The position numbers were made by a program, and so were the translations under genes. Below are positions 17,670 through 47,899 of a stretch of 64,000 bases of DNA, in pieces. The number at the start of each line of letters is the position of its first letter. Within the stretch, counting starts at the first letter, position 1. The DNA is from a virus. Lineage: Duplodnaviria > Caudoviricetes. The stretch lies in the IMG/VR virus record IMGVR_UViG_3300021400_000063, one strand, 5' to 3'. The notes beneath the pieces are model-generated. The model made no database searches, was not told the DNA's origin, and worked only from the letters and a program-made list of their open reading frames with translations.

Positions 17670-17858
17670 TTATACGGGGCAGAATTAACTGCCCCGTTTT
17701 ATCAAAAAGACTAAAAGCTTTTTGCCATCGATAAGAGAAAATTCACGAAAACTCTTACCAATGGGTAATTTCAAAAAAATTTATAGGAGGATTTAAATGA
17801 AAAAAAATGACAATTGAAAGACCAAAAGACGTCAGGATGCAGGTTTGTGAATTTGTAT
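17670..17858 (-). ncRNA. Candidate late small RNA (~190 nt) with anti-SD/anti-start-codon segment
   Basis: Perfect late promoter AACA-TATAGA-TATA (17869-17856), no annotated ORF, ends at hairpin 17674-17697. 13-bp stem CCAUUGGUAAGAG/CUCUUAUCGAUGG needs two G-U pairs on the minus strand. Confidence 0.55.
17674..17697. terminator. Intrinsic terminator
   Basis: ACGGGGCAG/CTGCCCCGT. Confidence 0.75.
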
Positions 17859-17869
17859 ATCTATATGTT
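17856..17869 (-). promoter_or_regulatory. Late-type promoter (orphan; drives candidate sRNA)
   Basis: AACA TATAGA TATA. Confidence 0.6.
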
Positions 17870-17883
17870 CAAATAAAAATTTC

Positions 17884-18513
17884 CTATTTTTTCAAAAAAA
17901 CTTTATAACAAGAAATTTTATTTACATCTTTATATTTATGAACTGTACCTTTAGCCGGATCATACATAAGTGTTCCAATTGAATTATATAGTTCAAAATG
18001 ATGTCCACCATAATTACCAGTACTACCTGTTAAGAAATCTACAATAAAGAAATAAACATTTCCATTTCCAGGAAGATCACTAGTATGTTGATAATTTGAT
18101 ACATTCCAATCTGAACCAGAAGCAACAGCTTTAACAAAAACGTTTGCATATTTATGTTTTTTATCATTTAATATTTGTGCCGCATAATTCATAATTTCAT
18201 TTGGACTAATTACTGTACAATCATAGTCAAGCCATCCACTTTTAACCGCATATAAATAAATATCAATTATTTGAGAAGGTCGTAATTTTTTCCCTTTCAC
18301 AAATTGAGGGGCCGCTAAGCAACACATAAAGTTACACCCAAATTTATGGATATTTGTTTCAGGATCTTTAGGTTTACTATCAGTTCTCTTAAAATCGATC
18401 TGATACATTACTTTAACATTAGGTTTAATAAAAGGAACTTTATAAGCAGCAGAATTCTTTTTTATTTCCATAATAATATCTCCATCTTTTATATTAAAAT
18501 GTTTTTCAGTCAT
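17884..18513 (-). CDS. DUF261-like / papain-fold cysteine peptidase (possible cell-wall hydrolase)
   Basis: IHKFGCNFMC (Cys), GHHF (His), YDP (Asp) triad spacing, resembling spirochaete DUF261 proteins. Confidence 0.5.
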   Translation of the reverse strand: MTEKHFNIKDGDIIMEIKKNSAAYKVPFIKPNVKVMYQIDFKRTDSKPKDPETNIHKFGCNFMCCLAAPQFVKGKKLRPSQIIDIYLYAVKSGWLDYDCTVISPNEIMNYAAQILNDKKHKYANVFVKAVASGSDWNVSNYQHTSDLPGNGNVYFFIVDFLTGSTGNYGGHHFELYNSIGTLMYDPAKGTVHKYKDVNKISCYKVFLKK

Positions 18514-18522
18514 AAAATAAAC

Positions 18523-18546
18523 ACCTGGTGAGATTTCTCACCAGGT
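18523..18546 (-). terminator. Terminator after tape measure gene
   Basis: ACCTGGTGAGA/TCTCACCAGGT. Confidence 0.7.
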
Positions 18547-18560
18547 ATTAAAATTATATG

Positions 18561-21500
18561 TTATTTAGACACTTGTTTTACCATAGCATCAAGTTGTGAT
18601 GCGACTCTAGGATTACCTTGTGTCTTAGCCATAATAGCTACCATATTTAATAATGCTGAATAGAATTCTTCAGAAACGTTATTATGACGTAACTGCTCAC
18701 TATGAATTTCATCAAGAATATTTAATTTGTTAATTAATTCATTCTTGAAATCAATTACGAAATCATTTATTGGCGACTGTTTTACAGAAACTTTAGAAGC
18801 TACCTTATCTACAAGACCAGGAGCTCTTTTAACAGCATTTCTAACACTATCAGCAACTTTATCAGATCTTTGTTTAATCTGATTAAGAGTATTCTGTGCA
18901 CCAGCTGTTGCTTTTTCTTTAAGAATTCTGATATTATCAGTAGAACCTAATGTACCAAATGCATCCGGTCCACCACGTTCCTCACCAATATTAGTTATAT
19001 CACCGTGAGCAACCATTCCAGGATCATCTCCATAGAAATTACCACCGATCGGTTTCCAAATTTCATTTTTAATAACCGAACTTGCAGTTTCGTGAGCTGC
19101 TAAACCTGCTTGATCATAATTTTTCATGAGTTCAGCAGAAAGTTCATCAAAGTCACGTTTCAGATCGATATTATTAGAAGAAGTAGATCCAGTTGTAGAC
19201 ATACCCATTCTTTCAAGTTCTTTCTGAAGTTTCTTATATTTTCTAGAACCTTGTTTAGTTTGACTTAATTGAGCTTGAAGTTCAGCTTGTTGTTTTTCAC
19301 GGATAGCGGCTATAGTTGCACCGGATTTAAATCCTTTTTGCTCTAATTCTTCAAATTCCTTTAAAGTTGTTTTAGTTGTAAGCCATGCTAAATCATTATC
19401 ACTAACATATTTAGCAGCTTCTTTAAGGAATTCACTGATAAATTTATTTTGAGCTTCTACATCTTCACAATGTTTATCGATAATCTCAAGATATTTACCA
19501 TATTTACCAGCAATTTGTTTTTCAATAGCAATAATAGGATCGTATTTATGTTGCTTCCAATACTTATAGATTTTAACGTCTTCGAATCCAATTCTATTAG
19601 AATCGAGTTCATCACTATCTTTTTTAGAGAAGAAACTCTTGAAACCAGCTTTAAATCTTCCCCATGCAGTAGCTTTAATACTACCTTTTAGTCCAGCTTC
19701 ATAAGCTTTAAGTTTATCCTGTGGAGCACCAAGTATTTCAGCACGTCTTGTAATATATTTTTCATAATTGTTTGCAGCTTTAGCTATTTTTTCACCTTTA
19801 ACGATTATTTTTACAGCTAAGTGTTTTACAGTCATACCGTATATACTTTGACACATACCATCAAGTTCAGGCATATATTCAGAAACCCATCCAACCATAC
19901 CAGATGCAACAGCAATATTATCTCTATCAGGATGATCTTTTGGAATTGATAGACCTAATGTAGAATTAACCATATCGATAACATTTCCATTTTCATCATG
20001 ATATTTATAATTGGCACATTTAATAAATGTTTCAGCCATCTGCTTACCAATTCCAGGATTCATCTCACTATTGTAACCGCTAAGTTTATCGTTGAATTCT
20101 GTCCATTCGCTAATATGACTTTCGCCATATTTATCAGCAATTTCAATAAGTTTCTTAACGAAATTAGCTCGAACTTTTTTAGTATTACTAAATAAGTTCA
20201 TTATTCTTGCACGTTCCATCTGTGTATATGGATCCATAATTAAACCTTTAGTAGCACCACGTCTAAACGCATTAGCAATAGCTCTACCAATATGTTTACG
20301 TTCTTTAAAAACTTTTTTAGCACCAGCTACAAGAGCAATTCCACCACCAACTAATAATCCGCCAAGAGGACCAGCTACTAATGTTGCAATCGCTGTTGCA
20401 GATACAGTAGCTCCCATTTTCTTAACAGCTTTAGCTTCTTTATCAGTTATAGCACCTTTCTTTTTCAAAACACTATTTGCTAAAGAACCTACAGGATTAG
20501 TAATAATTCCTGCAGCACGTTTAGCTCTATCTTTACCAGATAAATCAGTTTGTGCATCTTGTCCAGTATATTTCTTAAATTTTTCGAGAGAACAGTGTGA
20601 GGTTAACCAAGCAATCTTGTTTTCCAAAACATAAGCACGACAAATTTCAAGATAAATCTTTCGATAAGTGTTTTGATGCTCCAATGCAGCGGCTTCAGCT
20701 TCTGCTTTAGAATTCTCATCTACTTCACCATCTCCATTATTATCAAGATCTTCTTTAGAAACAGCATTCATTTTTTCAAGATATTTCTTAAGTTTAGTAT
20801 CGTCCATACTTGCTATGGTTTGATCATCTTTCTTTTCTTCACGAAGTTTAGCAATTGCTCTATCAACACATTCTGTAGTAAGAGGAATATATTTTCTCTC
20901 TTTCCACATCTTATAAATATCAACAGATTGGAAACCAAGTAACTGCGAATCTCTTTCATCATTGTTTTTAGCAATTCCGAATGTAGCTACATTAGCAATA
21001 GATCTTCCTAAACGTTTAGCACCAGAACCAAGATTATCAAAGAAATTTCCACCTTTTTCAAGATTTCTATTTTCATAAGCTATCAAGTTCTGAGGATCAT
21101 CGATACCGAAGATAGTAGAACGCATATTATTATATTTTGTATATCTATCTAATGCTTCTTTTTCTGCACCTTTTCCAACTATAGAATAGAACCATTCTTC
21201 AGCATTTCTAAAACCCATAGCTTTACAAATAACACCAGGTATTCCTAAAAGTACACCATCAAGCATTGCGGCTAAACCACAAGCTAAACGCATACCAACA
21301 GTAGGTCTTAAACCTCTACCGATATTAAATGTAGTTTTAGCTCTAGACATTCCTTTAATAAAATTTGCTACAGCAGTTGCTGCTAAAGCAGCCCAACCTA
21401 TCCAGTTAGTAGCCATACCGTTTAAAGTAGCTAATTTAGGGAATATCTTAGATAATACTTTTTTAGCACCGGTTTTTATACCAGAAATGACCGATTTAAC

Positions 21501-24500
21501 ACCAGATTTACCAAGTTTAGCTAATATTTTAGGTGTACTTAAAAGTTTTTGTAAAACTTTTGTTAATCCGCCTAATGCTCCACTGCCACCGCCAACTGCA
21601 GCAGCAGCTCCACCTAACATTGATGAACCACCAGAAGCGGCAGCAGCGCCACCAAATTTACCAGCAGCTCCTAAAACAGTACTACCAATCTTAGATTTTC
21701 CTAAGACTGATACTATTTTACTATTTCCAGTTATATGTTTAGCTAAAGATCCACCTTTATTTAATACAGTCTGTATTCCTTTACCAAGTTTAGTATTACT
21801 TAAACCTGTATTATCCATGAATGCTGAAATCTTTCCAGACCAACCTTCACTAGAACCTTCTTTGGCTCCTTCAGAAATAGCATCTTGCATTTTACTAGTA
21901 GATTCATCGTCTAGTTTAAATCCTTTCTTTTTCCAACCCGTAATAGTTGAAACTAATGTGGAAAGTAAACCAAAACGCATTTTATTTTCTTTAGCTCTTT
22001 CTTTTTCTTCTTTAGCTCTAGCTTTAGCTTCACGTTGTTCACTGGCTGAATTACCTTCTACACCGTCTTCTTCACCAAGAGCTCTATTTATTTTTCTAGA
22101 AGCTTTATCTTTACGATTTTTAGCTTTGTCTAATTTATGATTTTCTCTATCAAGATCTTCATCTCTCATAGCTTCTAACTGTTTCTTTTCAGAAGCAGAC
22201 ATAGAATCACCATATTTAGACATTTCATTTTGGAAACTATTATTTATAGATGAAATATTCGAATTAATAAAATTGATAGATGCTGTTGCAGCTTCTTTAT
22301 CAAGTTCAGATCTCATCAAACCTTTAAGAGCACGTTTCAGTTTACCATTAAGACGTTTAGCAGATTTGTTAGCATCAAGAATAAATTCAATTTGTTTAGA
22401 AGCTTTATGATATTCGTTATCTTTAAAAGCTAATTCAACATCAATACCGAGAGAATCGATTACATCCATTGTAGCTTTTGTTCCGCCGAATAATTTAACA
22501 ATATCAGGATGAACATATTTTTCAATTATAGATAACTCTTCATTAGCATCTTTTTTACGTTTACTGAATAAACTCTTAACACCGTCAATAGATTTCTTAA
22601 TCATATCGAAACCTGTAACAAGACCCATTCCAACAATACCAGCTACTCCACCTTGTGCTTCATCATCCATATGTTTATCTTTTAATTCACGAATAGCTTT
22701 CTTAAAAGGTTGTAATTCTGGATTAGAACTTTGAAGTAAGAATTCTGCTAAATCAGTCATAGTATTGAAAGATTCGATCTTTTCACCAAAACTAGGATCT
22801 TTTTTAGCTATTTCTCCAAGAACTTCACCAAGAGTTTTTTCACCAACTTTTATTTTCTTTAATTTCTTAACTAAAGTGTTCTTAATGAATTTATCAAGAT
22901 TTTCTTTTCCTCTCTGTTTAGTCCAAGCAACTATACCACCGAATGATTTATCCAATGAAGCTGCAGACTTTTTAAATTTAATTAAATCTTGTTTACATTT
23001 GTTTAATTGAGGATTATCATAAGCAAGCAAAATATTGATTTTTTCATCAACAGATTTAGCAGAATTAAGATTTAAAATTAAAGAAGGATCGTTTATTTCA
23101 GAAACAATTTGTCCAATAGTTTTACCAGTTTCCTTATTTTTTAACTTGATAAGGTCTCCAGATAAAATTCTATTCTGATTCATTGCTGCTAATTTTCCAC
23201 CGATTTTATTTTTAACAGTATCAAGTATCTTGTTTTTAAAGTTTCCAAGTATACCTTTTATAGAACCAGAATTACTAAGATCTTCGAGAGCTTTAGCTCT
23301 AAATTCTTCAATCTTAGGTTTGAAAGGATCGAGTTCTTTATAATCTGCGTTTAACAAAATCTTACATTTTTCTGCAGGATCAGGTTCTTTAGCAAGTTTA
23401 TAATTAAGAACTTGGCTATTTATTTCAGCGAGAGCATCTTTTAATTTATTACCCTTATCATCCTTAATATTGATTAATTCAGTACCAAGAACTTTATTCT
23501 GAACAGTAGAAAGTCCACTATAAATTTTCTTACCTAAACCAGCTTTTATACTATCTAAAGTATATTTTCCACTTGTACTATCTTTAAAATCAGAATCAAA
23601 TTTAGATTTATTAGTATTGTATTGTTTCTGAGCTTCATCAGCAAAAGCTTTTGCTTTAGAAGAACCCATATCTCTAATAATATTGATTTTTTCTTCTACA
23701 GATGTAGCTTTAGAGAGTTTATTCATCAATTCTGAATTATTAGTCTCGGACACATATTCACCAAGAGTTTTACCTTTTACAGAAACTCTAGAAAGTTTAG
23801 AACCTAAAACTTTAATAGATTTTGAAAGTTCAGATCTGTTGAAAGCTGATGTAAAAATATTTGCTCCGAATTTTAAAGATTTAGCAACTTTAGAATTCTT
23901 TGTTTTCATTAACAAAGTTTTGATTTCAGATTTAATCTTATCTTTAGCTTCTTTAGGAGCTGAATCATATTGATTCTTTAATTCACGATATTTAGAACGT
24001 TCTTCTTCTGTAAGTACAGTTCTAAAATATTCGCCATTTTCATCAATAGGTTGGAATGAATCATGTACAGAATAGAAGTTTTCACCAAGAATTCTGTTAC
24101 CAAAATTATTGATACCATTAGTAGCTTTATTAAAAGTTCTATAAACACTTTTCATTCCAGGTATTTTTCCCCAAAGTGTACTTTCAAATGCTTTATCAGA
24201 AGAATTAAATGAAGCCTCACGATCTGCTAAAGTTTTACTAACAGAATCTACACCGAATACATTAGATTCGTCTTCTTCAGTTTCAGAAGCTTTAGATTTT
24301 CTTATAGTAGCTTCTCTTATAGAAAGAGCATTATCTACAATTTGTTTATGGTAATCATATTGTTTACCTGAAGGATTTTTAACATAAACATCCAATCCAG
24401 TTAACAAAAGATTAAAGATATTATTTATTAAACCATGTGTAGAACTATCATGTAAATCTGAAATAATAAATTTATCAGCATCGGAAGGAGAATGAACTTT

Positions 24501-26813: not shown

Positions 26814-26853
26814 ATATTTGCTCCTTTAAAGGACATGTTTTACTTATTATTAG

Positions 26854-26904
26854 TATATAGAAATGTCTTTTAATAAACTAATACCAGACTTACATTTTTA
26901 TATA
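26854..26904. promoter_or_regulatory. Divergent pair of late-type promoters
   Basis: Minus GACA TTTCTA TATA (26867-26854) and plus TACA TTTTTA TATA (26891-26904). Confidence 0.65.
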
Positions 26905-26927
26905 AATATTTGGAGGATTCAACCGAA

Positions 26928-27416
26928 ATGAAACTTTTTAAGAAAATCAAAGCACGATATATTGCTAATTATATTATTAAGCAAATTCAAAAAATTAGTA
27001 AAACTGATACTTGTAACGAATATTTACGTGTTACTGAAAATATAAAGAAATCGAAATATATTTACATAAAATTTAATCTAATGGATGGTGTAAAAGATGT
27101 CCAGATGAATTTCATTGAATATTATAATTCTCATAAAAAAGCTGATGAAAGAGATTATTGTTATTTCCCAAGAAAATCAATTTTTGAATATTGGAAAATT
27201 TATAAAAAACATTTACCTAGTAAACTTTATAAATATCTTGATCTTTTAAGTAAACGATACGATTTTTATGAACCTGAAAAGATTAGAAAACTTGCTCTTA
27301 TGGTAATAGATAATATTTCTAATTCAAGATATGAACTTTCTGATGATTCAGTTGTATATAACACAATGGTTAATACAGGAATTAATTGTTATAAAATAAC
27401 TTTAAAACTTCTTTAA
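26928..27416 (+). CDS. Hypothetical protein
   Basis: ATG at 26928 after GGAGG. Late-type promoter 26891-26904. Confidence 0.55.
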   Translation: MKLFKKIKARYIANYIIKQIQKISKTDTCNEYLRVTENIKKSKYIYIKFNLMDGVKDVQMNFIEYYNSHKKADERDYCYFPRKSIFEYWKIYKKHLPSKLYKYLDLLSKRYDFYEPEKIRKLALMVIDNISNSRYELSDDSVVYNTMVNTGINCYKITLKLL

Positions 27417-27420
27417 AAAT

Positions 27421-27450
27421 ATAAGTACTGGGACGAATCCCAGTACTTAT
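27421..27450. terminator. Bidirectional terminator (UUCG loop on minus strand)
   Basis: ATAAGTACTGGGA-CGAA-TCCCAGTACTTAT. Confidence 0.8.
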
Positions 27451-27472
27451 TATATTAATTTATTGGTATAAA

Positions 27473-30838: not shown

Positions 30839-30853
30839 TATATTATAATAATG
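30839..30853 (+). promoter_or_regulatory. Early-type promoter TATATT-N7-TG
   Basis: TATATTATAATAATG, identical copies at 35109, 35547 and 47614. Confidence 0.65.
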
Positions 30854-30900
30854 TAAATACAACAAATTTGTATAATTCATAATTATGGGGGTAAAAAATT

Positions 30901-35108: not shown

Positions 35109-35123
35109 CATTATTATAATATA
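35109..35123 (-). promoter_or_regulatory. Early-type promoter
   Basis: TATATTATAATAATG. Confidence 0.65.
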
Positions 35124-35129
35124 TAAAAT

Positions 35130-35160
35130 AAAATGAGAGGAAATGAATCCCTCTCATTTT
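35130..35160 (-). terminator. Intrinsic terminator
   Basis: AAAATGAGAGG/CCTCTCATTTT. Confidence 0.7.
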
Positions 35161-35546: not shown

Positions 35547-35561
35547 CATTATTATAATATA
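35547..35561 (-). promoter_or_regulatory. Early-type promoter
   Basis: TATATTATAATAATG. Confidence 0.65.
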
Positions 35562-35563
35562 TA

Positions 35564-35594
35564 AAAAAAGAGGAAGATACACTTCCTCTTTTTT
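35564..35594 (-). terminator. Intrinsic terminator
   Basis: AAAAAAGAGGAAG/CTTCCTCTTTTTT. Confidence 0.75.
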
Positions 35595-37090: not shown

Positions 37091-37118
37091 AGTCTATGTT
37101 TCCGAATACGTTCTCTAA

Positions 37119-37425: not shown

Positions 37426-39498
37426 TTAAAAATCTAAGCCAACTAAACCACGACGCTGTAATCCCATAACAAAGTTATGTTTGAGATCATAATGTTCACG
37501 ATCGCTAACATTGTAAGAAACTATAAAACCATCGTCAACTTCATGATTAGGTGATTTATTTTCAGGTTGTTTTAATACGTCTCTAACAAGTTGATCGATT
37601 TTGTGTGAATCTCTAGATACAACAGGTTTAGCATAATTTGAACAGTATTTAAGAATTTTTGTCAAAGGTGGAAGATCAAATTTCCAAGCTCTGAAACCAA
37701 CAGTAAATTGATTAGGAACATATCTAGCTTCAGAAATCATATTTACAAGAGTTCCGTAAACAAATTCTGCAAAATTATTTACAGTTTCACTTACTTTTTC
37801 ATGTAATTTAATATCTGAATCTCTTACCGGTTTAGTCTGTTCCATCATACCAATTAACTTAGATGTAAGAATCAATAAATTAGATAATTCCATCCAAAGT
37901 TTTCTTGATAACTTGCTGTACATGAAGAACATATATTCGCCATTTGCAAGTTTTCCAGGATCATAAATACTGTTTTTACATGATTTAAATTCTGAAATAA
38001 TTGTCTGAATAAAATCACGAATATTGTAATCTGAAATAGATGAAGCCTTTCTTAACAGATCACCAAAATCATATGGTCTATAGAATTCACGAGTATATGA
38101 ACCCATTTCTATAGACTTAGAATAATGACCTTTACTATCATATTTTCTATGGAAATTTATCAAAACAGCATTTTCAAAGAAAACTGTAAATGTTTTTCTA
38201 AATAAAACAGATGCTTGATGTAAAATAAACTCGTCTTTATTAGAATCACTATAATCTGATATAGCCATAAACATTTGATTAATAAATTGATCATCACACA
38301 TATAATAATCTTTATTTATGTATTTGAATATTTTTTCAAATGTTTCATGATTCATTGAATCTGTTTCTTTAGCCATTCTAGGATCAACATGAGATTCTGA
38401 GAAATTAGCAAAGTAATTTACTTTAGTTACAAGATTCATTGTATCAGGATTTGATACAAGAAGTTTATTATATGAACCAATGAATTTTTGTAAGAAATGT
38501 CTCCAGTTTCCAGAAATATTGTAAGACATATCATAAATTTCCATAACAATACGTCTAGCAATCTTTTCACCGAAGTTTACATATTCACCCAATACAGAAC
38601 GAATATATTCGTCTCTAACAGTTTCGCCAGAATCTAAGAATTCAGGTAACTCATCAGGAAGTTTACAATTATTCATCAACCAGCTAATTATTTTATGCAT
38701 GTCTAAACATACTCTATAATTTACGACTGGAATAGAATCATAAATTGATGATCCAACGGTAAGTGAAATTCTTTCAATAAATGGCTTAACTTTGAAAGCT
38801 ATAGAACTAAGATTACTTTTACTTGTAGAATAAAAACAATCTGATCTATGAGCTGTATATTCTATACAGTTTTCAACGTCAAATCTGAAATTAGATTTAA
38901 TATTTTGAAGACCAAATCTTAACTTAGCTATTTCATCAAAATATTCATTTTTATTTAAAATAGCCGGAATATCACTATTGTGATTATCATGAAGAATATT
39001 TATGATAAATCTTCTAAAACATACTTCATCTTCTGGATCATCAATAGTTCTGATTCCATTAGTTTTATTATACTCATTAACCAATTCTTCTTCAACTTTC
39101 TTATTATCAGTAAGATTGTTAATTGATGTTACAAATGGTGAATATAATGAATTCTCATTAATCTTTACCATTTCTTCAATAGCTTCTTTATATTTATCAG
39201 GATTTGCAGACTTAAGTTTAACAAATTTCTGATAAGAATCCCAAATAATTCCAGCTCCAGCTTCTATACATCTATTAACAGCATCTGTAAAATCGTTATA
39301 AGATAAATATAGCTTTTTAGCAGAAATCTCAGGATTTATATAAAGAAGTGCACCAGTATCATAATTATAATCAACATCTTCGTTGAATGAACTGATAACA
39401 TTTGGAATTGATGTATCTGAAGGATGAACTTCAGAAGCAACAGAATTTTCCATCTGATGTACACCAGGCATATCTGGTGTTCTAATCAATGTTTCCAT
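37426..39498 (-). CDS. Large hypothetical protein (~690 aa)
   Basis: Start METLIRT at 39498 with AAGGAG RBS. No motif recognised. Confidence 0.6.
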   Translation of the reverse strand: METLIRTPDMPGVHQMENSVASEVHPSDTSIPNVISSFNEDVDYNYDTGALLYINPEISAKKLYLSYNDFTDAVNRCIEAGAGIIWDSYQKFVKLKSANPDKYKEAIEEMVKINENSLYSPFVTSINNLTDNKKVEEELVNEYNKTNGIRTIDDPEDEVCFRRFIINILHDNHNSDIPAILNKNEYFDEIAKLRFGLQNIKSNFRFDVENCIEYTAHRSDCFYSTSKSNLSSIAFKVKPFIERISLTVGSSIYDSIPVVNYRVCLDMHKIISWLMNNCKLPDELPEFLDSGETVRDEYIRSVLGEYVNFGEKIARRIVMEIYDMSYNISGNWRHFLQKFIGSYNKLLVSNPDTMNLVTKVNYFANFSESHVDPRMAKETDSMNHETFEKIFKYINKDYYMCDDQFINQMFMAISDYSDSNKDEFILHQASVLFRKTFTVFFENAVLINFHRKYDSKGHYSKSIEMGSYTREFYRPYDFGDLLRKASSISDYNIRDFIQTIISEFKSCKNSIYDPGKLANGEYMFFMYSKLSRKLWMELSNLLILTSKLIGMMEQTKPVRDSDIKLHEKVSETVNNFAEFVYGTLVNMISEARYVPNQFTVGFRAWKFDLPPLTKILKYCSNYAKPVVSRDSHKIDQLVRDVLKQPENKSPNHEVDDGFIVSYNVSDREHYDLKHNFVMGLQRRGLVGLDF

Positions 39499-39637
39499 TA
39501 TCTTTCTTCTCCTTAGAAGCATTTTTATCATCTTTACGAATAATTTTAATCTGAAAACCAGTTTTGGCTTCATTAACTTGTTTATCAAATGTATTTATAG
39601 GTAAAGATGAATTTTTAGGGTTTTTATTAGTATCCAT
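39482..39637 (-). CDS. Unannotated near-leaderless 51-aa ORF (MDTNKNPKNSSLPINTFDKQVNEAKTGFQIKIIRKDDKNASKEKKDNGNID)
   Basis: ATG lies 2 nt after the predicted +1 of late promoter 39637-39650. It fills the otherwise empty 140-nt leader and overlaps the next start by 17 nt. Confidence 0.5.
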   Translation of the reverse strand: MDTNKNPKNSSLPINTFDKQVNEAKTGFQIKIIRKDDKNASKEKKDNGNID

Positions 39638-39650
39638 ATATTATTGTGTC
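39637..39650 (-). promoter_or_regulatory. Late-type promoter
   Basis: GACA CAATAA TAT-ATG. Confidence 0.6.
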
Positions 39651-39670
39651 AAATTGAAAAGAAATAAAAT

Positions 39671-39700
39671 ATAAGTAGGTGGTCGAAACCACCTACTTAT
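39671..39700 (-). terminator. Terminator after MCP (UUCG loop)
   Basis: ATAAGTAGGTGGT-CGAA-ACCACCTACTTAT. Confidence 0.8.
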
Positions 39701-39744
39701 GTAATTCACAAGCTTAAATCAGCTGATCAAACTATTATCGATTA

Positions 39745-41703
39745 TTATTCACCAATTTTTGTGAATTCATAACCAATCTTAGAGTTGTCCATCTGCTGAT
39801 CGAAGTTATTTACTGGCATACCTGCGTTATCGAGAACTCCTTCGAGTGTGAGCTTGATAGCTGCTGCAGCGAAGTGTCCACGGTATTCACGACCACCAAG
39901 AATGATAGCTGTGCGGTTAGGCATATCAGGATCGATAGCTGTAAACATACGGATAGCATGTGGATAGTATACGAGGAATGGATATTCCATTGAGTATGTG
40001 CGGAGAGCACCGTATACAGAAGAACCACGTTCCTGCCAACGCTTATCAGTGTTACCGATAATACGTACTGAACGACCAAGGCTATCGATGTATCCACACT
40101 TAGTATCAACAGCGAATCCATAGTGTTCATTAACAGCAGAACCTTCAGCCTGTTCCTGGAGGTTAACAGCAGCGTTTTCAAACTTAACTTCAGGGAATTC
40201 AGTTACAACAGCGTCGTATCCCATAAGGATCCATTCACGTTTAACTGATGTAGGAATGTTAAGATCAGTATCAGCCATAGCGAGTACCTTGTTAAGGTAG
40301 TTCTTAAGACCGAACTTGTAATCCTGCAATCCAAGACCAGGTGTGAACTTAGAAATTCCGAATGAAAGATTGTTCTGGATGAATCCGCCCATCTTTCTTG
40401 TAAGTTCGAAAGTATCGATATCTACATCGTCATCAAGAACCTGCTTGATGAGGAAGTCTTCAGCTTCGAGTTCGCGGTTAGCGATTGTGTACTGAAGCAT
40501 TTTATCAGTAGCGTAAGCAGCATAAGAAATGTTGTTGTTACCACCGATACGGAAGTTATCAGCCATATATTCGTTGAGAGAAACTTTTGAGTAGTTTCTG
40601 TATTCACATTCACGAATGAACTGGAACTTATCAACACCCATTGTTGGGATATCTGTGATTTCGTTAGCTTCGTTAGAAACTTTACCATCAAACTTGAATC
40701 CCTTAATAAGTTTAAGAGCAGCAGCTGTAGGAGCTTTTACGAAGAGGATGAAATCACCATTATCGATATTTACACGCATGTAGATCTGGAGAACGATTGG
40801 TTCATCAAAGCCAGCAACATCTTTCAATGTATATGTAGCTTTCATATCACGTTCATTTGGCTGTCCAACCATAATAGAATAGTGGAGTTCTGTACGACGT
40901 GTTACAACTTCACCATCTTCACCATTCTGGAACTTAATTGCTGTAAGCTGATAGTTTGGTTCGATACCATACTTCATCTTATTGCGTCCAGATACAGTGA
41001 GAAGGTTACCCTTAACACCTGCAGTATCAGAACCGTCAGCAGCGTTGAGAAGGATGAACATATCTTCACCACACCATGTTTCAGGAGCAGTATATGTTCC
41101 AGCATTTGTATTAGGTGTTACCCAGTCAACCTGTGGAAGTTTGTTGAAACCTGTGATTTCGCCAGCACGGAAACACTGTGGGAAGAAGAACTTCTGATCA
41201 CCGATCTGTGCATAGTCGATATTGTATTCAAATTCAAGACGCATATTGTTCTTATTGTCAATATGCTGGAAGATTTCTTCTGAACGAGCAGAAGCAAGCC
41301 AACCACCAATAATGAATGGTGTTGTACCAAGTGCAAAACCACCCTGTGAAGATGCGTATACAGCTGTACCGCCACCCCAACCTTCCATACCGAATCCACC
41401 CTTATCAACAGCAGCTACTGTTTCACGAGTGTTATCCATAAGACGGTTGAAACGGCCCTGGAGAACTTTGTCACCAGCGAACATTTCAGCTGACAAGCTC
41501 TTTGCTTTAGCGAAGAGATTGTCATCGTCAACGATTCTTCCCCAGCCTTCTTTTCCGAACACTGACTGTGCTCCTACATACTTCTGAAGTTCATGCTGAT
41601 ACTTCTCAAGAGATTTGTAGTAAGACTGAGCGTGATCTTTCTTGTGAGATTCATATACTTTGGCAATATCTTCACGAGATAATTGAGTAAATGTATTAGC
41701 CAT
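39745..41703 (-). CDS. Major capsid protein precursor
   Basis: 652 aa with the strongest high-expression codon bias. Propeptide ending at GME/GW, YYPHAIRMF...YRG C-terminal motifs, next to DnaB as in phiKZ-like phages, strong terminator. Confidence 0.8.
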   Translation of the reverse strand: MANTFTQLSREDIAKVYESHKKDHAQSYYKSLEKYQHELQKYVGAQSVFGKEGWGRIVDDDNLFAKAKSLSAEMFAGDKVLQGRFNRLMDNTRETVAAVDKGGFGMEGWGGGTAVYASSQGGFALGTTPFIIGGWLASARSEEIFQHIDNKNNMRLEFEYNIDYAQIGDQKFFFPQCFRAGEITGFNKLPQVDWVTPNTNAGTYTAPETWCGEDMFILLNAADGSDTAGVKGNLLTVSGRNKMKYGIEPNYQLTAIKFQNGEDGEVVTRRTELHYSIMVGQPNERDMKATYTLKDVAGFDEPIVLQIYMRVNIDNGDFILFVKAPTAAALKLIKGFKFDGKVSNEANEITDIPTMGVDKFQFIRECEYRNYSKVSLNEYMADNFRIGGNNNISYAAYATDKMLQYTIANRELEAEDFLIKQVLDDDVDIDTFELTRKMGGFIQNNLSFGISKFTPGLGLQDYKFGLKNYLNKVLAMADTDLNIPTSVKREWILMGYDAVVTEFPEVKFENAAVNLQEQAEGSAVNEHYGFAVDTKCGYIDSLGRSVRIIGNTDKRWQERGSSVYGALRTYSMEYPFLVYYPHAIRMFTAIDPDMPNRTAIILGGREYRGHFAAAAIKLTLEGVLDNAGMPVNNFDQQMDNSKIGYEFTKIGE

Positions 41704-41732
41704 TTTATTTCTCCTTAAAAGAATAAAGGAAT

Positions 41733-42422
41733 TTAATTTTTACTAACCGGAGTAGATTTGTTATTCTGAGATAACTTACTATCACGTTTAGCTTTATCAC
41801 TTATCATACTGCTGAGTTTTTTAACTATAGTCTCGTATTGTTTAGTATACAACCTCAACTTAATTAAATTTTCCGGATTTTGTTGCATAATGAACGAATT
41901 ACGTTCTTCATCTAACATAGATTTGAGTTCACGTAGCTGAGTTAATTCAGACCAGTCAGCGTACATGTTATTATACTCTGTAATCGTATGTTGAATGGAG
42001 TCAGACAGTTCATTCAACTCACCAATAAGATAGTTTTTCTGATAAATTTGGGTAAATGGATTTAATGAAGATCCTCTATTTTTTTCTAGATCATCTACAC
42101 CAGTGGCTCCATCTGACCCATCTGATCCACCATCGGAAGAATCCATATCATCTCCACCAAAATCCCCATCGTCCATACTATCCATCTGAGAATCAAGTGA
42201 ATCCATATCATCTTCCATATCTCCTAAACCATCATCACCTGAATCACCGCCAGAAGATTCTTCATTAGCAGCATCTTCAAATGTTTCATCTTCAAGAGAT
42301 TGTTCGTAATCCTGGTGAATTATATCATTTTGTTCTATTTTTTTGTCCTCGAGGGACTCTGTGCTATTAGCTTTTGAACCAAAATCTGATGAAAAGCTAA
42401 GAATTTTAGAATGATTTATCAT
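41733..42422 (-). CDS. Acidic scaffold/prohead core-like protein
   Basis: Immediately upstream of the MCP, D/G-rich linker, STE/SLE sites, coiled-coil C-terminus. Confidence 0.5.
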   Translation of the reverse strand: MINHSKILSFSSDFGSKANSTESLEDKKIEQNDIIHQDYEQSLEDETFEDAANEESSGGDSGDDGLGDMEDDMDSLDSQMDSMDDGDFGGDDMDSSDGGSDGSDGATGVDDLEKNRGSSLNPFTQIYQKNYLIGELNELSDSIQHTITEYNNMYADWSELTQLRELKSMLDEERNSFIMQQNPENLIKLRLYTKQYETIVKKLSSMISDKAKRDSKLSQNNKSTPVSKN

Positions 42423-42451
42423 AAAAGTAGCCCTAAAGGTATAATTTAAGT

Positions 42452-42465
42452 TATATTATAATGTA
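42452..42465 (-). promoter_or_regulatory. Late-type promoter of scaffold-MCP operon
   Basis: TACA TTATAA TATA. Confidence 0.65.
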
Positions 42466-42479
42466 ATAAAGAAAAAAGT

Positions 42480-42645
42480 AAAAGAAAGGTGCTGGTTTTA
42501 CCCAGCACCTATTTATTTAAAGGTTTAAAAATAAATTAAACTCGAGAGATCTAATATCATCGACGATGAATACTAAATCTTAAGGAGAGTTATACGAATT
42601 ACACAATTCTAATTTGAAGATAAAGAATTTGAGCTTAATTTATTT
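42480..42645 (-). ncRNA. Candidate structured RNA (sRNA or helicase 3' UTR element)
   Basis: 15-bp closing stem 42631-42645/42529-42543 and internal stem AGAUUUAGUA/UAUUAGAUCU both pair fully only on the minus strand (G-U). Ends at terminator 42487-42510. Confidence 0.45.
42487..42510 (-). terminator. Intrinsic terminator
   Basis: AGGTGCTGG/CCAGCACCT plus U-rich tract on the minus strand. Confidence 0.75.
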
Positions 42646-42658
42646 ATAACCTGTTAAA

Positions 42659-44599
42659 TTAAGCATAAGCTACTTCTTCGTTAAAATCGCAGCTAACATA
42701 TTCTGTTTCTCCAATAATAAACGATCTATCATAATATGACATTTCAGAGTTAGACCAAACATAGAAATCTTCTGTTTCATAATCACCAGTATCAAGATAA
42801 TCAATCCATTTATTCCAATCGATATATTCGATAGGAACCTTTTCTTTAGAATTAAGGAAGTCTTCTCTTTCTTCAGTTGAAGATTTAACTTTAATAAGAT
42901 GATCTTTCGGAGGTGTTTTATGTTTATTATCTCTAATATCGATAATACCTCTAGAACCTTGATTCTGATTAGCATCATCAGTTCCAATTCCATCAGGAAT
43001 CTTAGGAAGTGACAATGGAGTCGAAAGATAGATATCATCATCAATGATAATACCATCACGAATTTTCATTACAAATGTTTCTGTACCAAACTTATTCTTA
43101 TAACGAGATTTATTTCTCTTAAACATCAACCAACGATCTTCACCATGAATTTCGATATCGATAAATGCTGACCATGAAACAGCCTGTTCAATACCATAAG
43201 ATTCACCAATGAATTCATTAGTCATTTGTGAAATAGCATTAACTCCACCTTGATTCTTTAAGTTTGTAAGAACCGCACCACCAGAACGGTTAATCTGATG
43301 AGCCGTAATAACTGGAATATCTCTATTCTTTGCAAGTGAAAGTAAATCATCTGCAATATTCTTTAACTGAAGACGGTTGTCCTTACCCATATCTTCCATT
43401 CTAGGTTTAATTAAACCTAAATAGTCAACAACACAAGCAATTACACGATATCCTTCTTCTTCAAGATTTTCAATAATAACATCAATTTCATCAACACTAA
43501 GAGATCTAGCATCGACATGTAAGAATGAAATATCAATAGGATTTTCTTCTTCACTATTAGTATTTCCAAAATTATGTTCCCAAGACTGATTAAGTTCTTC
43601 TCGAGATGTACATTTTCCAAGATCTTTTTTAACTACAGTCTTATACAAACGTTCATTATCTTCATCATTATCATTCTCCATACTAATGTGAAGAACTGTT
43701 GGAATTTTTCCAGTACGTTTAAATTCATCGATAACTCTTGAAGCATTATACTCCTTAATCATACGAGAAATATGAAGAAGCATTGCAGATTTAAATGAAT
43801 TAGTATTAGCATGAAGACAATATAAGTTTTTATTCTGGAATCCACCACGAGGTCCAAGTGCAGAGTTTAATGCTTGCCAACCTGTCTGTAAAGCAGATGC
43901 TGGATTACGAATAGCTTCATAAGTATCGTAAAGAATATCTAAGAATGTTGGATCTCCAGTATGAACAATTTCATTTGTCATTGAACTTGAATCTGTACTT
44001 CTGAAAAAGTTCATAATACTAGTAACTAAATCACGATATTGATGTAATAAATTTGGAAAATCTGTATAAGATGATGTTTCAATATCATTTGTTAATTCGA
44101 TAAGATTATCTTTTACATCGAGAATATATGAAAACTTAAGATTTTGATCTAGACTATTTGTAATATATTCAAGATCATCTTCAGGTAATTCATCTTTTGC
44201 AACATTAATCTGAGGTATAATTAATTGATCTCTTACTTTATCATAAGGTTCAACTAAAAGATTTTCAACTTTATATGTTAATGATTCTAATGAAACTCCA
44301 TGAGGATTTTTAGTTCTAATTGAAACTAATAAATCGCAAACAAGAAGCATAGCTTCTATATTTTCACTTCTACAATAATAATCTCTATCTATGATAGTTA
44401 GGAAACGTTTTATATTAGCAAGGGAACGTCTATTAACTGTAATGTCACTTGCTAAAACTTTTATAATCATGAGCAAAAAACGCTCAGAAACTAAATGTGA
44501 TCTATATTTTTTATTAGGTTTTCGTCTCTTAAATTCAGAATAATCAGTTGTACTATCGTACGATCCTAATGTTCCCATCTTCATATTGTTTAACTCCAA
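42659..44599 (-). CDS. dnaB: DnaB-like replicative helicase
   Basis: LQTGWQALN..GGF, Walker A variant ANTNSFKS, ISMEN, VVDYLGLI, PVITAHQINR. Confidence 0.88.
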   Translation of the reverse strand: MELNNMKMGTLGSYDSTTDYSEFKRRKPNKKYRSHLVSERFLLMIIKVLASDITVNRRSLANIKRFLTIIDRDYYCRSENIEAMLLVCDLLVSIRTKNPHGVSLESLTYKVENLLVEPYDKVRDQLIIPQINVAKDELPEDDLEYITNSLDQNLKFSYILDVKDNLIELTNDIETSSYTDFPNLLHQYRDLVTSIMNFFRSTDSSSMTNEIVHTGDPTFLDILYDTYEAIRNPASALQTGWQALNSALGPRGGFQNKNLYCLHANTNSFKSAMLLHISRMIKEYNASRVIDEFKRTGKIPTVLHISMENDNDEDNERLYKTVVKKDLGKCTSREELNQSWEHNFGNTNSEEENPIDISFLHVDARSLSVDEIDVIIENLEEEGYRVIACVVDYLGLIKPRMEDMGKDNRLQLKNIADDLLSLAKNRDIPVITAHQINRSGGAVLTNLKNQGGVNAISQMTNEFIGESYGIEQAVSWSAFIDIEIHGEDRWLMFKRNKSRYKNKFGTETFVMKIRDGIIIDDDIYLSTPLSLPKIPDGIGTDDANQNQGSRGIIDIRDNKHKTPPKDHLIKVKSSTEEREDFLNSKEKVPIEYIDWNKWIDYLDTGDYETEDFYVWSNSEMSYYDRSFIIGETEYVSCDFNEEVAYA

Positions 44600-44677
44600 A
44601 CTTTAAAATTCTTTATCTTCGTCCTATAATTATATATTCAAAAGAATTTTTAAAATTACAAACTTGAATACATCTTA

Positions 44678-45535
44678 ATGTCAATATATGATAATTTAGA
44701 GGCATGGAAAATGGACTATAATGAAAAAGAAGAATTAAGTAATAATAAAAAGATTTTTTTATTTAAATGGTTTATAAAATTTCTCGAAATATATGGTCAA
44801 GAAACATTTGGTGAATCCGCTTCAATAAATTGGGGTTTAGTACATGATGAAATAGTTGGTCATAGTATATGGTCAATGAATATAGAATTAGACAATTTAC
44901 TTTATAATGACCAGGAATCTTTAGATTCTGAAGAATTTAGAGATAAAGTATTTTCTTATATAGAAAATATGGTCTTAAAAGGTTATCCAATTTTTAGATT
45001 ATTTTATCTTCCAGAAAAACTTGAGAAATATTATGAAGATGAAATTAAACAAAATATTTATGAAAATGATAAAAAACGTTTTGCTAAATACAAATGTTTT
45101 AAATGTAAACACTATTGTGATAAGATAAAAGTCTATGTTGGTGATCCAGGAATGAATATTATGGGTGTTGCTCATATGAGTATTGATACTTTTAAAGAAA
45201 GATATCCTGATGCAGATATTGGATCTTTTAGATTAAATCATCATCAAATGTGTGATTTATTTGAAAAATATTTTAAAGAATTTGAAGATGAAGAGTCTAA
45301 AACTAAAGGTTATGTTTCATATTTTAATAGAGAAAAACGTTTTAACGATTGGATTGATAAACGTGAATATGCTAAAGGTGTAAAATTTCCAAAAGATGAA
45401 AATTATCATAGAGATTTAAAAAAAGAATATGAATTGAAACCTTTGTTAAATAGATGTAAATGTAATGAATATGAACCAATTGAAAATTTTTCATTCGACA
45501 ATTTTTTAGAAAAATACATAGAGCTTCCTTATTAA
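44678..45535 (+). CDS. Hypothetical protein with Cys cluster (CFKCKHYC...C...CKC)
   Basis: 285-aa ORF, possible Zn binding. Confidence 0.55.
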   Translation: MSIYDNLEAWKMDYNEKEELSNNKKIFLFKWFIKFLEIYGQETFGESASINWGLVHDEIVGHSIWSMNIELDNLLYNDQESLDSEEFRDKVFSYIENMVLKGYPIFRLFYLPEKLEKYYEDEIKQNIYENDKKRFAKYKCFKCKHYCDKIKVYVGDPGMNIMGVAHMSIDTFKERYPDADIGSFRLNHHQMCDLFEKYFKEFEDEESKTKGYVSYFNREKRFNDWIDKREYAKGVKFPKDENYHRDLKKEYELKPLLNRCKCNEYEPIENFSFDNFLEKYIELPY

Positions 45536-45539
45536 TTTA

Positions 45540-45554
45540 TATATTATACTAATG
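45540..45554 (+). promoter_or_regulatory. Early-type promoter
   Basis: TATATTATACTAATG. Confidence 0.6.
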
Positions 45555-45590
45555 TGACAGATAAATATATTTATAAAATGAGGGGTCAAA

Positions 45591-45929
45591 ATGTTATTTT
45601 GTCAACACGGTAGTACTGATAGCGGTTTATTTATCGGTAAATTAGAAACTGATGTATTAGGATTTGATGTTGTTAATGAATATATCCCTGAGCAAGGAGA
45701 TAGTTTCAAAAATACTTCATTTGTAGTGATTGATTTCAATAAACATGAAGCATGGTTATTGGATGATGAATGGATTTATTTTAATGTCGTTAGACATAAC
45801 GGATCCACATACAAACCTAATATAATAATCGCAACTAGCCATTATAAAAAAGTTTTTTATAGTGACTACATTGATATCATAAGCTATCGAAACAAACATA
45901 AAGCAATTCCAAATGTTGTTGTTTTATAA
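45591..45929 (+). CDS. Small early hypothetical protein
   Basis: Early promoter 45540-45554, GAGGGG RBS, terminator 45937-45961. Confidence 0.6.
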   Translation: MLFCQHGSTDSGLFIGKLETDVLGFDVVNEYIPEQGDSFKNTSFVVIDFNKHEAWLLDDEWIYFNVVRHNGSTYKPNIIIATSHYKKVFYSDYIDIISYRNKHKAIPNVVVL

Positions 45930-45936
45930 TGTAAAT

Positions 45937-45961
45937 AAAGAGAGGATCTATTCCTCTCTTT
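45937..45961 (+). terminator. Intrinsic terminator
   Basis: AAAGAGAGGA/TCCTCTCTTT plus T run. Confidence 0.75.
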
Positions 45962-45988
45962 TTTTTGTAAACTAATTGTTTTTTTTTG

Positions 45989-46003
45989 TATATTATATTA
46001 ATG
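45989..46003 (+). promoter_or_regulatory. Early-type promoter
   Basis: TATATTATATTAATG preceded by T-run. Confidence 0.6.
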
Positions 46004-46063
46004 AGGGTGGATGACTATAAACTCTTAATAAAAATAAATTAATTATAGTCAAGGGTAAGTTAT

Positions 46064-46414
46064 ATGATAACATTTAAGAAAATTTTGCTTCCAATTGAGA
46101 AAATGGAAGAAATCATTGGAGACTATAACAGAGTTTCCAATGAAATCATGGAACAGCATGGTAAGCAATTAATTGCTTACTATAAGTCATTGAATAAATA
46201 TTCGACTAAAGAAATAGTCGATATTACTGGCGAGAAAATCGCCTTATTAACTAAGATCAGATTTGAACATGATCTTAGAGATATTTATGATCCATGCGAA
46301 TCTGATCCAATACTTGTTGAAAGACAAGAAGATCTCATGTACAGTATGCTATACGCTACTGAAACATATATGGATTTAAGAAGGTTGAATAAACTTAATA
46401 TTAAGAACTATTAA
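46064..46414 (+). CDS. Small early hypothetical protein
   Basis: Early promoter 45989-46003, terminator 46432-46467. Confidence 0.6.
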   Translation: MITFKKILLPIEKMEEIIGDYNRVSNEIMEQHGKQLIAYYKSLNKYSTKEIVDITGEKIALLTKIRFEHDLRDIYDPCESDPILVERQEDLMYSMLYATETYMDLRRLNKLNIKNY

Positions 46415-46431
46415 GTTTATTCGAATGAAAT

Positions 46432-46467
46432 AATAAAACTACCCGATATTATTCGGGTAGTTTTATT
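46432..46467. terminator. Bidirectional terminator
   Basis: AATAAAACTACCCGA/TCGGGTAGTTTTATT. Confidence 0.8.
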
Positions 46468-46471
46468 TTTT

Positions 46472-47548
46472 TTATTTACAATACTTAATATAAACGCTAT
46501 TAAGCATTAAATATGAACTATAGTTTGATACATAATGAAGAACATCTAAAATAGAATTATGCATTTTAGTCTTTATATTATCATAATCAGCTTCAACAGA
46601 TTTACCTATAGTTTCCAATTCACTGATATATTGTTTAGTATGTTCAGATGTAATTTCATTTAAAGGTTTCTTAAAAGTATTTTGCATTTCTGTAGAAAAA
46701 CGTTCTTCAAATGGTATATATTTGTATTTAAACATAATATCTATAATTGACTTATCATTTAATTTATCCAAAGCATAATTTGTACAATCTACAATATCTT
46801 TATACATTAATCCATCATTTACAATTTCTTCATCATTATCTGATGTATCAAATGGTGATATTATGATAGAACTATCAGATATCAACCATTTGAAAAAAGG
46901 TTCTATATTTTTATAATACCAAAGTTTTATTGTAGCAAAAAATGATGACTGTTGTCTTTTAAGTTTTTCAGCATCTTTGTTTAATAAATAATTTACATTT
47001 TCATAATTCTTTTTACATTCATCATGTTCATCGATATATTTATTAACTATAGATATAATTTTCGTAAAAAAGTTATCTAATATAACACTTTTATCTTCTT
47101 TAAAATAATCAACATTTATATCATAAGATCTTTTTGTTACATAAATATTTTTAACACATTTACTAGTTAATAATAAAATATCATCGATAAAATTATTTAC
47201 ATTTACTTTTCCAGTAAGTTTATCAGCATTATATATTACATCCATTGCTAACATGTCATAATTAAATTCTAATACTTTATCAAAAATATAAATTATATTT
47301 GCTATTTCTTTTAAATATACACAAGCTGAATTTAAATTTTTTGGAAGCTCTGTATAATTATTAACTTTGATATAGTTATTTGTTAGATATGAAATATTTG
47401 ACCCGTCGAATATATAACCTGTAGTTTTATAATTTTCCACAAATAAATTATATATTTCGGTAATCATTTCTTTATCGTATTTAAAAGATTTAGACTTTTT
47501 ATATTTCTTAAAAAATAATCTCTCTAAAGGTTTAAATTTATTTTTCAT
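46472..47548 (-). CDS. Hypothetical protein
   Basis: AGGAG RBS before MKNKF at 47548. Late promoter 47564-47577. Confidence 0.6.
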   Translation of the reverse strand: MKNKFKPLERLFFKKYKKSKSFKYDKEMITEIYNLFVENYKTTGYIFDGSNISYLTNNYIKVNNYTELPKNLNSACVYLKEIANIIYIFDKVLEFNYDMLAMDVIYNADKLTGKVNVNNFIDDILLLTSKCVKNIYVTKRSYDINVDYFKEDKSVILDNFFTKIISIVNKYIDEHDECKKNYENVNYLLNKDAEKLKRQQSSFFATIKLWYYKNIEPFFKWLISDSSIIISPFDTSDNDEEIVNDGLMYKDIVDCTNYALDKLNDKSIIDIMFKYKYIPFEERFSTEMQNTFKKPLNEITSEHTKQYISELETIGKSVEADYDNIKTKMHNSILDVLHYVSNYSSYLMLNSVYIKYCK

Positions 47549-47563
47549 TATATGTCTCCTATT

Positions 47564-47577
47564 CATATTCATGTGTC
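47564..47577 (-). promoter_or_regulatory. Late-type promoter
   Basis: GACA CATGAA TATG. Confidence 0.55.
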
Positions 47578-47613
47578 GAAGTTCATGTTATTTTGTAAAA
47601 TGTTTATTTTTTG

Positions 47614-47628
47614 TATATTATAATAATG
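47614..47628 (+). promoter_or_regulatory. Early-type promoter (orphan)
   Basis: TATATTATAATAATG with upstream context like the 45989 copy. No ORF >=60 aa with a credible start downstream. Confidence 0.6.
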
Positions 47629-47637
47629 AATAAAAGA

Positions 47638-47666
47638 TAAGGAGGGCGCCGCAAACGCCCTCCTTA
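47638..47666 (-). terminator. GC-rich hairpin/terminator of candidate sRNA
   Basis: TAAGGAGGGCG/CGCCCTCCTTA. Confidence 0.65.
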
Positions 47667-47697
47667 AATTTAATTTTTATTCAAGGTGGTGAGCACG

Positions 47698-47796
47698 ATG
47701 AATAACGATCTATACACTTATTTTTATAGTGTACACGATTATGACGGTTCTGCGTTAACTTTAAAAACACAGATAACTCGAAGACCAGTTTATTAG
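47698..47796 (+). CDS. Possible 32-aa peptide MNNDLYTYFYSVHDYDGSALTLKTQITRRPVY
   Basis: AAGGTGG RBS-like element 8 nt upstream. Lies between early promoter 47614-47628 and terminator 47869-47898. May only be the antisense image of the sRNA. Confidence 0.3.
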   Translation: MNNDLYTYFYSVHDYDGSALTLKTQITRRPVY

Positions 47797-47833
47797 AGAA
47801 ACCGGAATCGATCCCGTCACAAATAAATGTATA

Positions 47834-47847
47834 TATACATAATTGTT
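47834..47847 (-). promoter_or_regulatory. Late-type promoter (orphan; drives candidate sRNA)
   Basis: AACA ATTATG TATA. Confidence 0.6.
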
Positions 47848-47898: not shown

Positions 47899-47899
47899 T

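Follow-up and report, generated by a model that had tools for sequence, protein, structure and literature searches.

A conserved late-type RNA with an open anti-Shine-Dalgarno motif, predicted in a group of uncultured giant phages

Does a giant phage make small RNAs (sRNAs) that mask ribosome-binding sites? The question is raised by a stretch of Caudoviricetes DNA, 64,000 nucleotides (nt) long with a G+C content of 30% (IMG/VR record IMGVR_UViG_3300021400_000063; hereafter the window), which carries three minus-strand motifs complementary to Shine-Dalgarno (SD) sequences: CCTCCT at 17785-17790, CTCCTTA at 42581-42587 and CCACCTT at 47683-47689. A sequence-only reading had placed the motifs in three gene-free, terminator-closed minus-strand units and proposed a set of late sRNAs, each displaying a different anti-SD variant. 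The positions are exact, and the motifs do fall in the three longest gaps of a simple map of open reading frames (ORFs), which measure 266 nt (17618-17883; R1), 236 nt (42423-42658; R2) and 327 nt (47573-47899; R3). The description of the units holds only for R1; R3 contains a plus-strand small gene, and the R2 motif is not preceded by any NACA-N6-TA promoter. The earlier observation is thus partly confirmed and its interpretation partly supported. We consider it probable that the three motifs have three different causes, R1 being a late non-coding RNA, R2 the 3′ untranslated region (UTR) of a helicase gene and R3 an early plus-strand small gene. What began as three loose candidates is thereby reduced to one RNA family with clear boundaries, a covariance model, at least 10 sequence lineages and a precise motif.

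Apart from the three motifs, the intergenic DNA of the window contains no strong orphan SD-like site (at least 6 nt) that is both outside hairpin stems and not followed by a gene. The suggested excess of such motifs over chance did not hold up: the 2581 nt of intergenic DNA contain 4 orphan AGGAG/GGAGG sites, compared with 2.8 ± 1.6 expected from dinucleotide-preserving shuffles (P = 0.31). It is conservation, not motif counts, that supports R1. The elements of R1, which lies between a 209-amino-acid (aa) gene and a gene for a 704-aa virion protein, are as follows.

17665-17869, minus strand: the R1 unit, with a late-type promoter, ~194 nt without a conserved ORF, two hairpins and a terminator.
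17856-17869, minus strand: distal late-type promoter AACA-TATAGA-TATA, which has the AACA-N6-TA form known from phage AR9 and its extended form ACA-N5-ATATA; predicted start at ~17858.
17665-17858, minus strand: predicted sRNA of ~194 nt, with a variable 5′ half that includes the conserved CAU-N6-CCUCCU, followed by hairpins H1 and H2 and terminator hairpin H3.
17785-17790 and 17797-17799, minus strand: CCUCCU and CAU (the mirror of a start codon), together the exact complement of a textbook start, AGGAGG-N6-AUG.
17725-17764, minus strand: H1, with a 13-bp stem and an invariant loop, UUUUCGUGAAUUUU; 7 of the 13 pairs change on both sides.
17665-17697, minus strand: terminator, consisting of H3 (17674-17697) and a U-tract; 7 of the 9 pairs change on both sides.
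17643-17655, minus strand: proximal late-type promoter GACA-AAATG-ATATA of the 704-aa virion protein gene; its ACA and ATATA parts do not vary in any relative, L020 and L022 included.

Since the 704-aa gene has its own proximal promoter, R1 is predicted to be a separate transcription unit. H3, which lies on the minus strand and is the only terminator-like site between 17550 and 17950, also ends the upstream operon that encodes a 2750-aa and the 209-aa protein. As expected of an independent sRNA gene, R1 has a promoter of the phage's own class directly upstream, and the gene that follows is served by another, both promoters being conserved; R2 lacks a promoter of its own, and R3 has only a near-consensus site.

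The assignment of R1 to late transcription follows from the two promoter classes of this phage. In AR9, the late consensus is AACA-N6-TA/G and the early consensus is AAATATATATTAT-N6-G (PMC5312081). Plain AACA-N6-T[AG] proved too loose to serve as a promoter test, with 11 of its 135 sites in the window intergenic against ~9.6 expected; for this reason we searched with ACA-N5-ATATA, an extended form of the AR9 late consensus. This motif occurs 22 times in the window (8.8 ± 2.5 expected), and 15 of the 22 sites are intergenic, in DNA that makes up 7% of the window. All but one of these 15 lie 2-93 nt (mostly 20-50 nt) upstream of a gene start on the same strand. The single exception is the distal promoter of R1, 239 nt from the gene start. 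An early-type motif, TTTTTATATATTAT-AATAAT-G, which is near the AR9 early consensus, stands upstream of seven small genes in the correct orientation. Early-type promoters are often oriented opposite to the surrounding late operons.

4895, 8024, 8059, 9854, 26854, 30785, 39637, 45557, 49575 and 59270: examples of late-type ACA-N5-ATATA sites.
30839-30859 (plus), 35116-35136 (minus), 35554-35574 (minus), 45540 (plus), 45989 (plus), 47606-47628 (plus), 49613 (plus) and 63608 (minus): early-type motif.

A close relative (G002; 276 kb, 99% complete) encodes two beta-like pieces and one beta′-like piece of a multisubunit RNA polymerase; one beta-like match is above the Pfam cut-off and the beta′-like match is slightly below it. 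AR9-type phages encode such polymerase pieces too. Enrichment of the motif before genes, together with the polymerase pieces in G002, points to late transcription units of the AR9 type. The DnaB-like helicase of the window shares 24-26% identity with the helicases of AR9/PBS1-type and staphylococcal giant phages (24% for AR9). Two promoter classes are thereby documented for an uncultured phage group.

We gathered relatives of R1 through its neighbour, the 209-aa DUF261-like protein. The gap is retained in all of them, at 245-293 nt, and in all of them the distal promoter is kept immediately downstream of the 209-aa gene. The order on the minus strand is the same throughout: the promoter AACATATA(A/G)ATATA, the 5′ end AUACAAAUUCACA, a variable stretch and UUUUUCAU-N-AAUCCUCCUAU in the 5′ part, and then H1, H2, the terminator H3, the second conserved promoter and the SD sequence of the 704-aa virion gene. 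Up to 14 relatives, in which the identity of the flanking proteins falls from 85% to 49%, keep the promoter, the 5′ end AUACAAAUUCACA, CUCCU, H1, H2 and the terminator. A search of R1 for small proteins found no conserved one. Comparison of positions 17600-17900 with Rfam gave no match above threshold, the best score being 20.6 bits against a cut-off of 56. The R1 covariance model finds one copy per genome, and no second copy of the invariant loop sequence was found. Weaker matches to the model were considered as paralogues and rejected, since they are coding sequence or plain terminators.

We then asked which strand carries the structure. The minus strand of R1 folds at −44.3 kcal/mol, with a z-score of −5.1, compared with −2.8 for the plus strand. 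RNAalifold predicted 29 pairs from eight R1 sequences, 9 of them with compensating changes, and the resulting covariance model recovered L032, L033 and L020, none of which had been used to build it. When 11 sequences were aligned with the model, 98% of cells were paired and changes on both sides affected 16 of the 29 pairs, a level reached in none of 500 shuffles; slid controls gave 4-7 such pairs. An invariant U-G pair in H1 would be an A-C mismatch if read on the plus strand. Because of this pair, and because the terminator is present on the minus strand only, we conclude that the structured strand of R1 is the minus strand. The distant relatives L020 and L022 retain the three-hairpin layout with a different sequence. 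The R1 version of L022 (L022:2111-2336), the most distant one, escapes the covariance model at E ≤ 0.001; its 226 nt contain five CCUCC/CUCCU motifs, including one inside a 5-nt hairpin loop.

The 5′ half of R1 is otherwise variable, and CUCCU stands out in it. The motif is invariant in 11 of 11 aligned relatives, is present in three more, and occurs in every R1 lineage, down to ~50% identity of the flanking proteins. It is enriched over shuffles in six of seven lineages. The homologous copy is predicted to be unpaired with a probability of 0.71-0.99 in most lineages, against a unit-wide mean of ~0.5; in L020 the value is 0.51, and a second copy reaches 0.97. The window's genes use strong SD sites, of the TAAGGAG, AAGGAG and GGAGG types, and the R1 motif is complementary to sites in such use (AAGGAG or GGAGG). 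Neither strand of R1 has a conserved reading frame, the frame on the plus strand ranging from 0 to 33 codons. Taken together, comparison of the relatives gives good support to R1 as a new small RNA family, predicted to be a separate, late-transcribed, non-coding RNA of ~190 nt.

The analysis shows the promoter class of R1, its strand, structure and conservation, the openness of its motif and the lack of a coding frame; we infer its production as an RNA, its pairing with ribosome-binding sites and its choice of messages. By analogy with known RNAs, an anti-SD function in translational control is plausible. The late-type promoter after the 209-aa gene would fire late in infection, and the RNA would also be embedded in the 3′ UTR of the upstream operon. 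Its 5′ half, while varying between relatives, would retain one open stretch, CAU-N(5-14)-CCUCCU, whose CCUCCU and anti-AUG could pair with the SD and start regions of messenger RNAs. We model this mode of pairing on the C-rich small RNAs of Firmicutes and on the c4 RNA of phage P1. Pairing would block ribosome loading late in infection, with early phage or host messages as the likely targets. A broader version of this proposal, which is possible but which we regard as doubtful, is that R1 imitates the 3′ tail of 16S ribosomal RNA (its AUCCUCCUA stretch resembles the AUCACCUCCUUA tail), binds early phage and host ribosome-binding sites broadly, and shifts translation to late genes. If true, this would be an RNA-level shut-off of host and early genes in phages that bring their own RNA polymerases.

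At R3, the motif has a different origin. The elements of this gap are as follows.

47606-47628, plus strand: early-type promoter TTTTTTGTATATTAT-AATAAT-G, as upstream of six other small genes in the window; kept in L001 and L002.
47639-47665, plus strand: hairpin in the 5′ UTR, the pairing of which is held through compensatory changes in L001 and L002.
47684-47692, plus strand: true SD sequence, AGGTGGTGA, 5 nt upstream of the ATG at 47698.
47698-47842, plus strand: small gene, frameshifted in the window; its first frame, 47698-47796, encodes 32 aa.
47836-47847, minus strand: AACA-ATTATG-TA, which may be a late promoter in antisense to the small gene, with GTATA instead of the ATATA of the extended consensus.
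47873-47894, both strands: two-way terminator hairpin common to a 249-aa gene (minus) and the small gene (plus).

In relatives L001 and L002 the small gene encodes 47-51 aa and ends in ..ITGIDPVTNKCIYT, and ten intact database clusters of the protein have 50-51 aa. The window retains the conserved C-terminus, ..FIRETGIDPVTNKCIYT*, in the +1 frame (~47777-47842), the cause being a 1-nt insertion near 47775-47780. An independent assembly, L037, has the same frameshift allele, which is therefore probably genuine rather than an artefact of assembly; L036, with the gene order of the window, has the gene intact. Among relatives the SD sequence is AAGG[G/C]GGTGA-N5-ATG ahead of the intact ORF, and AAGG[T/G/C]GGTGA overall. 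Because the gene is conserved and intact in relatives, we conclude that CCACCUU is complementary to a real ribosome-binding site. With a conserved frame of 47-51 aa, R3 does not have the non-coding character of an sRNA gene; it is a conserved early micro-gene missed by gene callers in the window. The AACA-N6-TA at 47836-47847 could drive a cis-antisense RNA. In L002 the spacing of the corresponding site differs by 1 nt, and conservation of the site is uninformative because it overlaps the conserved C-terminal codons of the small gene. Adjoining the small gene, L002:3562-3918 (minus) and L001:3523-3954 (minus) have an extra gene of 118-143 aa, in the orientation of the window's plus strand and with no family match. 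The window (between 47573 and 47640), L036 and L037 do not have it, a presence/absence difference within one phage population.

R2 lies downstream of the DnaB-like helicase gene, and its elements are as follows.

42516-42658, minus strand: structured 3′ UTR of the helicase gene (z-score −7.7), with an inverted repeat around an inner hairpin.
42480-42517, minus strand: terminator of the helicase transcript.
42452-42464, minus strand: late-type promoter of a 229-aa gene, after the helicase terminator.

From the helicase stop codon to the motif there is no late-type promoter; the only such site at R2, at 42452-42464, serves the next gene. R2 is therefore the 3′ UTR of the helicase gene. The inverted repeat has 32-nt arms (42512-42543 and 42631-42662) that are 81% complementary and enclose 87 nt. 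CUCCUUA (42581-42587) is partly paired in the consensus fold. None of the 59 pairs shows compensating changes among close relatives, because these relatives are too close to one another. The motif is absent from L006 and L009, the helicases of which are 88-89% identical. On the plus strand, L003, L004 and L007 have TAAGGAGAGTT-ATG and an ORF of 18 codons directly behind the SD; this ATG is replaced by ATA in the window and in L008, and L005 carries a deletion at this place. A search for small proteins in R2 found no conserved one. CUCCUUA thus has no support as a functional element, and may be a remnant of the start of a plus-strand mini-ORF. R2 was also considered as a repeated mobile element and rejected, since it is single-copy in the 276-kb relative.

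Could the three gaps nevertheless encode three late small RNAs, each with its own anti-SD variant, that jointly tune translation? The minus-strand folds go far beyond those of shuffles in all three (z-scores of −5.1 for R1, −7.7 for R2 and −6.6 for R3), and at R3 an AACA-N6-TA site faces the small gene, so that an RNA starting there would span its ribosome-binding site, like an ordinary cis-antisense RNA. Even so, we regard this reading as very improbable, and largely refuted: R2 has no promoter and loses its motif at 88-89% helicase identity, a conserved gene accounts for the R3 motif, which varies (T, G or C) exactly where an SD sequence tolerates change, the covariance model finds no R1 paralogues, and there is no window-wide enrichment of motifs. 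The outcome that the sequence-only reading had named as refuting it, plus-strand motifs that go back to genes intact in relatives, is seen at R3 and in part at R2, so there is no set of three anti-SD sRNAs; for R1 the idea survives and gains strength. For R1 itself, the selected feature might lie on the plus strand, as a real start (AGGAGG, 5-15 nt, ATG AAA AAA) of a tiny or fast-evolving peptide, or as a ribosome-loading site. CCUCCU would then be a mere complement, and R1, like R3, a reverse-oriented small gene, decayed in most lineages. An SD, an ATG and an A-rich start are present in ~8 of 10 lineages, with spacings all in the working range, R3 demonstrates that this phage group places plus-strand small genes in such gaps, and frames of 33 codons in L011 and 29 codons in L022 are found, the latter called by a gene caller. 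However, the ORF behind the SD has 4, 5, 6, 6, 8, 17, 29 or 33 codons or is absent, with no peptide in common; those of L011 and L022 are unrelated, and the frame in which the conserved promoter DNA is read is not the same in L011 as in L032. The plus-strand poly-A beside the motif (17800-17807) is A7, A8 or A9 among near-identical phages, which shifts the frame and marks an insertion-deletion hot spot next to the motif. There is no early- or late-type promoter facing the plus direction at R1 and no plus-strand terminator following, and the covarying helices with U-G pairs point to a minus-strand RNA. We conclude that a plus-strand start is an unlikely explanation of R1.

R1 might instead act only in cis, as the structured 3′ UTR and terminator of the 2750-aa/209-aa operon or as a leader or insulator of the 704-aa gene, controlling message stability or read-through, with no trans pairing role for CCUCCU. 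Between the 209-aa gene and R1 there is no terminator, which means that upstream transcripts have to traverse R1 to reach H3, and R2 shows that long structured 3′ UTRs occur in this phage. Set against this are the conserved full-consensus promoter inside the unit, and the conservation and openness of CUCCU in an otherwise unalignable 5′ half, which stability elements leave unexplained. CCUCCU also has no compensating pairing to the terminator or to the SD of the 704-aa gene across relatives, as judged by inspection only, and on the same ground R1 was rejected as an attenuator or as a sequesterer of that SD. A purely cis-acting R1 therefore seems improbable to us. Several observations nonetheless weigh against a late R1 RNA that pairs with messages. 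In the window, its full mirror sequence has no match other than itself, and in the 276-kb relative the best site has 2 mismatches in 20. Duplex energies of R1 with 50 gene starts of the window form a continuum with no outlier target. GGAGG precedes 0 of 12 promoter-proximal late genes and 2 of 6 early genes, a weak difference, since internal genes of late operons do carry GGAGG and several start calls are doubtful. The stretch doubles as the 3′ UTR of the upstream operon, the message of which its hairpins might serve. The 11-sequence alignment was fitted to the covariance model and favours the structure of that model. In ~8 of 10 lineages, the plus-strand SD is followed 5-15 nt later by an ATG, a spacing that a tiny translation start would predict more simply than a pairing seed would. 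Finally, the promoters of the window are assigned by analogy with AR9, a distant relative with a helicase only 24% identical.

If R1 is a late anti-SD RNA, it has partial counterparts. RsaE/RoxS-type C-rich sRNAs of Firmicutes are short and structured, end in an intrinsic terminator, and use unpaired C/U-rich motifs to block translation start at G-rich SD sites. R1 resembles them in being a short structured RNA with an intrinsic terminator and an unpaired C/U-rich motif, and the five motifs of the L022 version recall their multi-motif layout. R1 differs in belonging to a virulent-type giant phage, in its phage late-type promoter, in having no Rfam sequence or model match, and in its motif, CCUCCU followed by an anti-AUG where RsaE/RoxS have a CCCC run. 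In phages P1 and P7, exposed sequences of the c4 RNA pair around a ribosome-binding site and block translation (PMC12197685). These are temperate phages, and c4 acts on a single specific target, ant, within its own operon, whereas R1 lies in a late structural region and matches no Rfam model. The virulent Pseudomonas phage PAK_P3 makes two abundant, late, intergenic RNAs of ~100 nt, sRNA1 and sRNA2, which were seen by RNA sequencing and proposed to silence translation (PMC4933390). For those RNAs expression was seen and there is no anti-SD logic; R1 has anti-SD logic and conservation and is known from sequence alone. AR9 shares with the window the late AACA-N6-TA promoter, an early promoter of the TATATATTAT-N6-G type and the character of a giant phage with split multisubunit RNA polymerases (PMC5312081), and is only distantly related. 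The main text of the AR9 paper describes antisense transcripts only, and the terms 'noncoding', 'non-coding' and 'small RNA' are absent from it (PMC5312081). Few small RNAs of virulent phages have been described, several of them of unknown function (PMC4933390, PMC12197685). Giant phages with their own RNA polymerases still need host ribosomes; given that dependence, the masking of ribosome-binding sites by a conserved late RNA would offer a simple and testable means of reprogramming translation.

A DNA search of a phage collection returned no close record for the window, and a scan for transfer RNAs returned none. Rfam 15, searched across the whole window at gathering thresholds with the RsaE and C4 families included, gave zero matches. 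The 209-aa protein next to R1 (17884-18513, minus) matches Pfam DUF261 slightly above the cut-off (27.7 against 26.1 bits). Some longest-ORF starts have no SD and were probably called too far upstream, namely those at 1713, 26910, 37119, 37426, 42659, 52117, 59314 (TTG) and 55070 (GTG). For the 366-aa gene, the start is most likely at 47548, after AGGAGA.

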